Assembly: GCA_963582255.1 (NCBI GenBank)
Contig: CAUZRD010000003.1
Location: 1 to 32,881 of the forward strand
Direction: 5' to 3'
DNA from: Alphaproteobacteria bacterium
Lineage (GTDB): Bacteria; Pseudomonadota; Alphaproteobacteria; Rhizobiales; TMED25
DNA: 32,881 nucleotides
Under the pieces are notes generated by a model that worked only from the letters and a program-made list of their open reading frames with translations, did no database searches and was not told the origin of the DNA. Positions 21,989-23,178 of this stretch are shown here, piece after piece. The position numbers and the translations under genes are program-made. The first letter of the stretch is position 1, and each line of letters opens with the position of its first letter.

Positions 21989-22537
21989 CTATATATTATC
22001 ATGAGCCGGAACAGCTCCTAGCTTAAACGGTTTGATAGCCTTGATAACTCCGAAATGAATCGCGATAAAGGCCCCTATCTCCATGATCTGAGCTTCGCTA
22101 AAATACTGCTTCATCTCGTCATAAAATGCAGTGTTAACCTTCGATGCATCCAGAAACATCTGTTCCGAAAAAGCCAGAGCGCACTGTTCTGCCGCAGTAA
22201 ACAAGGGTGAGGAATCATAGTCTCCGCAACCAACGTCAATCATCTCCTCGGTTAGCCCCAAAGCCAGAGCCTTGCGCGAACGTAGCGAGGCAAAATATTC
22301 ATCCTCAGCAAATCTCGCCAGTTGAATGCGAATTATTTCCTTTAGCTTATGGTCCACACCGCCTTCATAATGTGAATGTAGTATAGCCCCTAGCGCAGCC
22401 TTCGCTTGCGCGGGTTTGTGCGCAAGAATTTGGCCAAAGCGGGCATCTGGTACGCCCAATTCATCGCAGCGCGTGATTAATTCACGCAATTCTCTATCTT
22501 TGATCTCGTCCATCGGAACGGGTGTAATGAAGGACAT
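21989..22537 (-). CDS. AhpD/carboxymuconolactone decarboxylase-like protein lacking CxxC; paralog of the upstream putative selenoprotein
   Basis: DHKLKEIIRIQLAR...GLTEE...FTAAEQCALAF...YFSEAQIMEI AhpD-like pattern. ATG 22537 overlaps the upstream TGA stop (TGATG). Confidence 0.85.
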   Translation of the reverse strand: MSFITPVPMDEIKDRELRELITRCDELGVPDARFGQILAHKPAQAKAALGAILHSHYEGGVDHKLKEIIRIQLARFAEDEYFASLRSRKALALGLTEEMIDVGCGDYDSSPLFTAAEQCALAFSEQMFLDASKVNTAFYDEMKQYFSEAQIMEIGAFIAIHFGVIKAIKPFKLGAVPAHDNI

Positions 22538-23178
22538 CAATTTTCTCCCACAGCGCATGTTCCCGTGGGGTTATCCTTTAGCGAAACCGGCACATCGCCA
22601 TAAAGACTTGCCGACTCTTCCTGATCAATCAACCTACCATCGGGCGCAAACATCGGATAAAAATTTAACGACCCAAAGAAGGTATGAAAGCCGAGATTGA
22701 AGAATAGAAACATCGTCAGTTCGGCTAAATCTTCATCGCTATAATATCGGCGCAGTTCATCAAACATCGATTGGTCGATTGATTCCGGGTTTTCAGAAAC
22801 CAGGTCAACATATCCCAGAACCGCCTTCTCCGCTTCAGAAAAAGCAGCGCTTTCAGTATAAGAATTAACCCCTTCGTCCAGCAGCTCTTCGGTTAGTCCT
22901 AACCCCTTCGCCGAAGCGGAACGAACATTACCTCAGTAGCTGCAGTTAGCTGCCCGCGACAGATTAATCCGGATGATTTCTTTTAGCTTGTGGTCAAGGT
23001 CACCAGCATTAAATACACTGGTCCAAGCGAGATAAGCTGCCTCGGTAAGATCAATATTATGACCCATGATCGAGTGAAAACCAGGATCCGGTGCACGTAA
23101 CTCAAGGCTTCTCTCAATGTACGGTCTGAGTTTGGTTTTCTTCAGCTTGTCTAAATCAAGCATCGTGACATTCGCCAT
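22537..23178 (-). CDS. Putative selenoprotein: AhpD/CMD-like protein of 213 aa with C79-x-x-U82 (in-frame TGA at 22933-22935)
   Basis: Track ORFs 22933..23235 and 22537..22767 share a frame. Read-through gives ...INLSRAANCSY-U-GNVRSASAKGLGLTEELLDEG...AEKAVLGYVD...MFDELRRYYSDEDLAEL with no other stop. It is collinear with the neighbouring paralog and has a GGAG RBS before ATG 23178. Confidence 0.88.
22885..22932 (-). promoter_or_regulatory. Candidate bacterial SECIS element
   Basis: 3' of the UGA there are two hairpins: CGC-UUCG-GCG (loop 17 nt after the UGA) and GGUUA-GGAC-UAACC (G-initiated loop 33 nt after the UGA). Confidence 0.5.

Follow-up and report, generated by a model that had tools for sequence, protein, structure and literature searches.

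We analysed a stretch of 32,881 nucleotides, hereafter the window, that makes up positions 1 to 32,881 of contig CAUZRD010000003.1 in the alphaproteobacterial assembly GCA_963582255.1. On its minus strand lies a gene of the AhpD/carboxymuconolactone decarboxylase (CMD) type, which is interrupted by an in-frame TGA codon and followed closely by its paralog. The interrupting codon is predicted to specify selenocysteine (Sec, U), and a putative RNA hairpin lies shortly downstream of it. The features that carry this prediction are the following.

22537..23178, minus strand: AhpD/CMD-like selenoprotein gene, predicted from the translation with TGA read as U, the sequence, Pfam CMD PF02627, an AlphaFold2 model and Foldseek.
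22933..22935, minus strand: in-frame UGA, the predicted Sec codon U82, in the motif C79-S-Y-U82-G-N-V-R, from the conserved TGA and from the Cys of distant homologs and Protein Data Bank (PDB) relatives.
22903..22919, minus strand: putative bacterial selenocysteine insertion sequence (SECIS) hairpin with a 7-bp stem and a GGC loop, from pair counts, frozen synonymous sites and single-sequence folds.

A first-pass annotation, made from the letters of the window, had taken two short open reading frames (ORFs) at this place for one frame broken by a single TGA at 22933-22935 and open for about 130 codons beyond it. Translating the minus strand from 23178 to 22537, we find that this is correct. 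There is one frame of 213 codons, and its sole internal TGA is codon 82 (22935..22933). The frame begins with ATG (23178..23176), runs through the codons M1-Y81, the TGA and 131 more sense codons, and ends at a terminal TGA (22539..22537). A GGAG Shine-Dalgarno-like motif stands about 8 nt 5′ of the ATG. Around codon 82 the DNA reads TGC AGC TAC TGA GGT AAT GTT CGT, that is C79-S-Y-stop-G-N-V-R. Under translation table 11 the frame falls into two ORFs, one of 100 aa up to the TGA and one of 76 aa, for which M138 is the first possible start.

We checked whether homologs carry Cys or a conserved TGA at position 82. Homologous DNA loci were fetched from two sources: species genomes, which yielded 164 relatives, and metagenome contigs, which yielded 313; from each, the best 80 were used. 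TGA stood at the homologous codon in all 160 fetched loci (55-82% protein identity), the record titles of which name Alpha- and Betaproteobacteria; TGC, TGT and TGG were found at codon 82 in none of the 160. The context C-[SVTN]-Y-TGA-G-N-V-R-S was recognised by pattern in 159 loci, the 160th being L096. Of the 160, 158 loci are complete on the 3′ side, and in each of these the frame remained open for at least 120 codons past the TGA. In G003, the closest relative genome, the ortholog is 80% identical and contains one TGA, with the paralog downstream as in the window. Homologs were also present on TARA and marine metagenome-assembled genome (MAG) contigs.

The distant homologs gave the other half of the answer. 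In the related genomes, 18 of 18 distant, stop-free homologs (24-32% identity) have Cys at the aligned site, in the motif C-x-[YF]-C. Seven loci of genus g3 (genomes G002, G007-G010, G012 and G015) read C-E-[YF]-C-G-N-Q-R-S, and selB above the cut-off was found in none of these seven genomes. A profile of 24 read-through proteins aligns CxxU with C-M-Y-C of Bmp8 (6ohi, 51.7 bits) and also with C-A-Y-C of PA0269 (2ijc, 2o4d). From the aligned Cys in distant homologs and PDB structures, we therefore conclude that the predicted Sec replaces the second Cys of the family redox motif. The AlphaFold2 model places C79-x-x-U82 at the N-terminus of a short helix.

The putative SECIS hairpin begins 13 nt 3′ of the UGA with the consensus CCGCUUC-GGC-GAAGCGG, and a weaker lower stem may lengthen it to 22899..22924. 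A bacterial SECIS, in the bSECISearch model, is a stem-loop shortly after the UGA with a G in its apical loop. The hairpin has both traits, given its distance from the UGA and the G of its GGC loop. In a gap-free alignment of 136 distinct segments of 90 nt around the TGA, we counted the pairs: 90.7% of the stem cells were paired, and shifting the 3′ partners by 1-3 columns lowered the pairing to 35-61%. Pairs 35-45, 37-43 and 38-42 are invariant. Pair 33-47 is CG in 93 sequences, UG in 34 and UA in 9, and is unpaired in none, while pair 36-44 is UA in 134, CG in one (a compensatory change) and UG in one. Compensatory changes thus occur at two upper-stem pairs, from C-G to U-A (9 sequences) and from U-A to C-G (1 sequence). 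The identical hairpin appeared in five of five single-sequence folds.

The strongest evidence for an RNA element is the freezing of synonymous sites. The stem/loop codons 88-91 are GCT in 147/148, TCG in 148/148, GCG in 148/148 and AAG in 146/146 sequences, with an entropy of 0-0.06 bit, compared with 0.85-2.2 bit at the other invariant 4-/6-fold codons of the same gene. The peptide for which the hairpin codes, S-A-S-A-K, is itself invariant.

Searching the genome for selA, selB, selC and selD, we found all four on contig C4 of the same assembly. The matches were above the cut-offs (selD 284 bits, selA 543, selB 385 and tRNA-Sec 70), and selD, tRNA-Sec, selB and selA are clustered there on one strand. 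ARAGORN reported the tRNA-Sec of contig C4 with the anticodon TCA. The assembly is a MAG of 245 contigs and 2.2 Mb, 85% complete with 5.5% contamination. Among 61 related genomes, selB was over the cut-off in four (G000, G003, G023 and G031), and the TGA ortholog occurred only in G000 and G003, both selB-positive; it was found in none of the 57 related genomes without a selB match over the cut-off. We also looked at five other ortholog-bearing genomes, including that of the cultured Rhodoplanes tepidamans DSM 9987, which carries selB and an ortholog with TGA (L046). In four of the five, selB exceeded the cut-off; in the remaining one it is present as two neighbouring pieces.

The conserved TGA, the Cys of the homologs, the hairpin and the sel genes, together with the selection and the independent assemblies described below, support the earlier proposal that the UGA is decoded as Sec. 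Judged from sequence, codon 82 is very probably a Sec codon in a full-length AhpD/CMD-like protein of 213 residues. Decoding would be performed by the organism's SelA, SelB, tRNA-Sec and SelD and directed by the in-gene hairpin 13 nt downstream. SelB bound to Sec-tRNA would recognise this hairpin and insert Sec at codon 82.

Several observations weigh against the Sec assignment or its parts. The 52 nt after the UGA are unexceptional in stability (z -0.85 to +0.47 versus shuffles in five sequences); for the 76-nt fold of the window, z is -2.4. Because the energies of the 52 nt do not differ significantly from those of the shuffles, folding stability is not used here as evidence. RNAalifold, given the 136 sequences, picked a 3-bp C(UUCG)G alternative over the 7-bp stem, which we retained because the single-sequence folds and the compensatory changes back it. 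Covariation is thin, as most pairs are invariant; three pairs show double changes, a number equalled by 65 of 500 shuffles. In the window itself, the third pair of the stem (34-46) is a G.G mismatch, and an Rfam scan of 22700-23100, with E up to 10, returned chance-level matches only and no SECIS family. The window and the sel genes are on separate contigs, and what links them is binning and the same pairing in the relative G003. The confidence of the AlphaFold2 model, expressed as the predicted local distance difference test (pLDDT), is lowest, at 63, for residues 81-90, directly after Sec. The thioredoxin gene that lies upstream in the window is absent in 68 of 143 judgeable loci. Finally, four database proteins (P0002-P0005), full length at 202-213 aa and from contigs of 1.0-1.3 kb, have W at the Sec site, and the DNA behind these four was searched for among the fetched loci and found in none. 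Since the 160 DNA loci are all free of TGG at this codon, the W residues probably stem from a metagenome gene caller that applied code 4 to TGA.

The same four proteins raise the question of whether the UGA is read through without selenium, by Trp (code 4), near-cognate or Cys insertion, to give a full-length protein that is not a selenoprotein. Sec machinery can, besides, insert Cys under selenium scarcity. We consider selenium-free read-through highly improbable. TGA is the terminal codon of the gene and of 92 of 158 orthologs, and these organisms thus use it as a stop. In all 18 distant homologs and in the PDB relatives, the residue aligned with the site is a catalytic-motif Cys rather than Trp, and TGG was found in none of the 160 loci. 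Simple read-through, moreover, has no role for a synonymously frozen hairpin, and the sel genes co-occur with the ortholog.

The first-pass annotation had also predicted that standard gene callers would split the gene or dismiss it, and the databases bear this out. A protein database search returned 45 matches, none of them annotated with Sec. Twenty-five are short (118-135 aa); in the nine of these that were aligned, the first residue corresponds to residue 85 or a later one, shortly beyond the TGA, and these nine are thus C-terminal fragments. Fourteen are long (276-371 aa), and all 11 that were aligned start after the TGA and run via a low-complexity linker into a paralog-like second domain. 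Apart from the four W-containing proteins, there remain P0026, which has 164 aa and diverges around the motif, and P0046, a protein of the paralog type with 178 aa. In the public annotation of the relatives, the gene appears as truncated fragments called 'carboxymuconolactone decarboxylase family protein'.

The proteins of about 120 aa that callers predict from V/M85 are what one would see if the locus made two polypeptides, one being an N-terminal peptide of 81 residues and the other a C-terminal protein with its own initiation. The codons past the TGA make this extremely improbable. In 148 distinct sequences, codon 85 is GTC in 90, GTT in 47 (as in the window) and GTG, the possible start, in only 7. 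In the window, M138 is the first start codon to follow the TGA. Since codon 85 is mostly a non-start codon and the window offers no start before M138, the conserved residues 83-137 require read-through. The CMD fold, too, spans the TGA.

The two short ORFs under table 11 and the truncated fragments in the relatives' annotations could also be taken for a pseudogene, an AhpD-like gene inactivated by a nonsense mutation, from which an 81-residue fragment or nothing is made. We compared the proportions of nonsynonymous (pN) and synonymous (pS) differences against six close homologs, five of which were long enough for the C-terminal half. The N-terminal half gave pN 0.06-0.11 versus pS 0.79-0.96, and the C-terminal half pN 0.12-0.16 versus pS 0.57-0.75. 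The ratio of the corresponding substitution rates (dN/dS) was 0.05-0.15 where dS was estimable. Nonsynonymous change is therefore far below synonymous change on each side of the TGA, and the 3′ half is not relaxed. Post-TGA residues including F173, P175, D180 and G181 are invariant in 24 aligned read-through proteins, while their codons vary synonymously in the 148 distinct sequences. As the TGA recurs at this codon in 160 of 160 loci and purifying selection acts downstream of it, the pseudogene explanation is effectively refuted.

Independent assemblies were used to check the codon for sequencing error. Over positions 22000-23600 of the window, near-identical DNA (0.86-0.91 of sampled words) was found in 12 seawater/marine metagenome runs with 12 study codes, counted apart from two possible source runs. 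Six runs recorded as RNA (five seawater, one aquatic metagenome) contain 0.22-0.69 of the sampled words of the same region. The organism appears widespread in seawater. We compared contigs from two DNA and two RNA-library runs of other samples over the same positions; RNA libraries can contain DNA, so from them the presence of the TGA is claimed and transcription is not. Differences occurred only at 22064, 23038, 23256 and 23298. The records that span the TGA are X3 record 12 (the whole stretch), X14 record 2, X15 record 5 (22422-22982) and X16 record 10 (22850-23437), and all four runs show TGA, with no TGC or TGT. That the true codon is TGC, TGT or TGG, misread in a window that comes from a fragmented MAG (245 contigs), is next to impossible, as these four runs show no difference at 22933-22935 and all 160 homologs have TGA.

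We then placed the predicted selenoprotein among known families. It matches Pfam CMD PF02627 with 31.3 bits, against a gathering threshold of 23. The best NCBIfam match is NF053654, 'YciW-related (seleno)protein' (58.6 versus a cut-off of 310 bits, residues 48-159), and the next is TIGR01926, 'peroxidase-related enzyme' (33.3 versus 81.8 bits, residues 16-162). The protein resembles both families over the CMD core, but its scores are far under their cut-offs and it is a member of neither by the NCBI rule. No NCBIfam family was above its curated cut-off for the selenoprotein, and we infer that the Prokaryotic Genome Annotation Pipeline (PGAP) lacks a model that would call Sec in this gene.

The AlphaFold2 model, built from 24 sequences, is all-helical (pLDDT 83.5; predicted template modelling score, pTM, 0.78). 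Foldseek ranked Bmp8 first (template modelling score, TM, 0.68/0.77; 25% identity), followed by PA0269, Atu0492 and Pseudomonas aeruginosa AhpD, with a probability of 1.00 to Bmp8, PA0269, Atu0492 and AhpD 7xw1. Bmp8, a tetrabromopyrrole debrominase (6ohi, 6ohj), is thus the closest solved structure by both profile and fold. Its C-M-Y-C aligns with C-S-Y-U, and a Bmp8 PDB title names a C82A mutant. Bmp8 differs in that it has Cys only and acts on a halogenated pyrrole, and dehalogenase activity is not implied for the selenoprotein by this likeness.

The AhpD alkylhydroperoxidases (PA0269, 2ijc/2o4d; P. aeruginosa, 7xw1; Mycobacterium tuberculosis, 1gu9) share the all-helical fold and have a CxxC-type motif in the same place, although the M. 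tuberculosis enzyme is a weak match (Foldseek E = 1, TM 0.43/0.53). A His shortly after the CxxC has a catalytic role in AhpD, and a PDB title among the Foldseek matches names an H137F mutant. Four residues past the second Cys, PA0269 has such a His (C-A-Y-C-V-N-M-H), whereas the selenoprotein has Arg (R86 of C-S-Y-U-G-N-V-R), which is invariant in the 24 proteins. Because Arg replaces the His, the selenoprotein is not a canonical AhpD. It differs from AhpD also in having no adjacent AhpC partner gene; its neighbours are a thioredoxin and the paralog.

That Sec-containing AhpD/CMD homologs had already been predicted, as the first-pass annotation stated, is confirmed by catalogues going back to 2005. 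CxxU AhpD-like selenoproteins of COG2128 were reported from the Sargasso Sea with 27 sequences (Zhang, Fomenko and Gladyshev 2005, PMC1088965). The Global Ocean Sampling (GOS) survey lists, among its most abundant families, 'AhpD-like 1' (COG2128, 299 sequences) and 'AhpD-like 2' (pfam02627, 70 sequences) (Zhang and Gladyshev 2008, PMC2398784). A 2026 review names the forms AhpD-like (TIGR01926), CMD-like (PF02627), AhpD-related (NF041238) and distant AhpD (NF041047) (PMC13188914), and BSepDB has an AhpD-like family page (PMC13326102). Compared by description, the published AhpD-like selenoproteins belong to the same superfamily, have CxxU with Sec in second place, are abundant in the sea and are uncharacterised. 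The motif C79-S-Y-U82 is likewise a CxxU in an AhpD-like domain. By these descriptions, the gene is an unannotated new member of the already catalogued CxxU AhpD-like selenoproteins and not a new kind. In the published accounts we found no mention of a Cys-less paralog, a C-x-P-C thioredoxin or a near-invariant SECIS across Alpha- and Betaproteobacteria; their supplements may hold more.

Two further genes on the same strand flank the selenoprotein gene.

21989..22537, minus strand: Cys-less AhpD/CMD-like paralog of 182 aa, with D-E-Y-F in place of C-S-Y-U, from alignment and Pfam.
23213..23548, minus strand: upstream thioredoxin of 111 aa with a non-canonical C-S-P-C, from Pfam Thioredoxin PF00085 (74.9 bits).

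The paralog aligns with the selenoprotein without gaps across the TGA, as first noticed in the letters, at 32-34% identity. Its ATG overlaps the selenoprotein stop by 1 nt in the window. Directly downstream and on the same strand, a paralog was found in 140 of 142 judgeable loci; the overlap of its start with the selenoprotein stop is 1 nt in 67 of 130 loci and 4 nt in 26. D79, Y81 and F82 of the paralog are invariant (n=20). All 11 of the aligned long database proteins are selenoprotein-paralog fusions, and two of 158 loci, open for more than 340 codons after the TGA, are fusions as well. The fusion linker (P0006-P0017) has 60-100 residues of low complexity, rich in R, P, G, E and S with motifs like RHPGESRDP, and may be a translated intergenic repeat.

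The ATG of the thioredoxin is at 23548, its longest ORF reaches 23608, and the gene ends 35 nt before the selenoprotein start. In 75 of the 143 judgeable loci, the selenoprotein gene is preceded on its strand, at a distance of 20-60 nt, by a thioredoxin homolog. Among 83 matches to upstream thioredoxins, the motif was CVPC in 58, CAPC in 9, CIPC in 7, CVLC in 1 and CVSC in 1, and none was found in 7. Stop-to-stop ORFs upstream in the 68 thioredoxin-less loci were uninformative, the DNA being GC-rich. Farther out, at 18878-21976 and 23898-26047 of the window, we noted an amidase, a flavin-binding (Baeyer-Villiger-type) monooxygenase, a family III CoA-transferase and an HpcH/HpaI aldolase. These are not conserved with the selenoprotein gene: of the 160 loci, one has the flavin monooxygenase, one the CoA-transferase, and none the amidase or the HpcH/HpaI aldolase.

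Since Sec replaces the second Cys of a C-x-x-C redox motif, the protein is most likely a thiol/selenol oxidoreductase. The enzyme would cycle between the selenol/thiol and the selenenylsulfide form at C79-x-x-U82, and a peroxide, a protein disulfide or a small electrophile are candidate substrates. The upstream C-x-P-C thioredoxin may re-reduce it. Its Cys-less paralog could be a non-catalytic heterodimer partner that contributes structure but no redox residue, a role suggested by the tight coupling of the two genes, their near-universal co-occurrence and the natural fusions. Both the thioredoxin relay and the heterodimer are clearly less certain than the decoding of Sec.

A broader picture can be drawn only tentatively, and we regard it as rather unlikely in its entirety. 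Three genes might form an undescribed redox module that depends on selenium and is widespread in marine, freshwater and soil Alpha- and Betaproteobacteria, with the selenoprotein as its catalytic subunit. Its members would be a dedicated C-x-P-C thioredoxin, a CxxU AhpD-like protein and an obligatory, catalytically dead D-x-Y-F paralog. The latter two would form a heterodimer with a single selenol site, and the module may reduce a small electrophile rather than serve as a peroxidase partner. Halogenated organics, in a deiodinase-like reaction, come to mind because the closest solved relative is the debrominase Bmp8.

The results disclose a real annotation gap, in which a widespread selenoprotein is systematically mis-annotated. 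The conserved set of thioredoxin, selenoprotein and paralog, together with the frozen SECIS, gives an experimental handle on a family that has stayed uncharacterised since 2005.

Further observations concern the sel cluster and the other candidate genes of the assembly (G000). The SelD on contig C4 is the C-terminal part of a 743-aa ORF (L001:1387-3618, minus strand) near tRNA-Sec, selB and selA. The N-terminal half of this ORF resembles a pyridine-nucleotide-disulfide oxidoreductase, and the SelD active site has Cys (C-A-G-C-G-A-K) and no Sec. Ndh-SelD fusions are mentioned in the GOS survey (PMC2398784). On contig C2 there is a second candidate selenoprotein, an AhpC-TSA (peroxiredoxin-like) frame (L200:270-866, minus strand; Pfam match C2:33756-34124). 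Its single in-frame TGA falls in H-W-U-P-Y-C, which is a UxxC motif as in the published 'Prx-like' selenoproteins. No FdhA above the cut-off and no Rdx/SelW match was found in the assembly, which at 85% completeness does not show their absence. A small-genome seawater bacterium thus keeps the full Sec machinery with two candidate selenoproteins seen so far, and for this reason these genes bear on the selenium demand of ocean microbes. The assembly also has 17 CMD-family matches, four of them consecutive on contig C30 (e.g. C30:5781-7175) and others including C143; an in-frame TGA is present in only one of the 17, the window gene.

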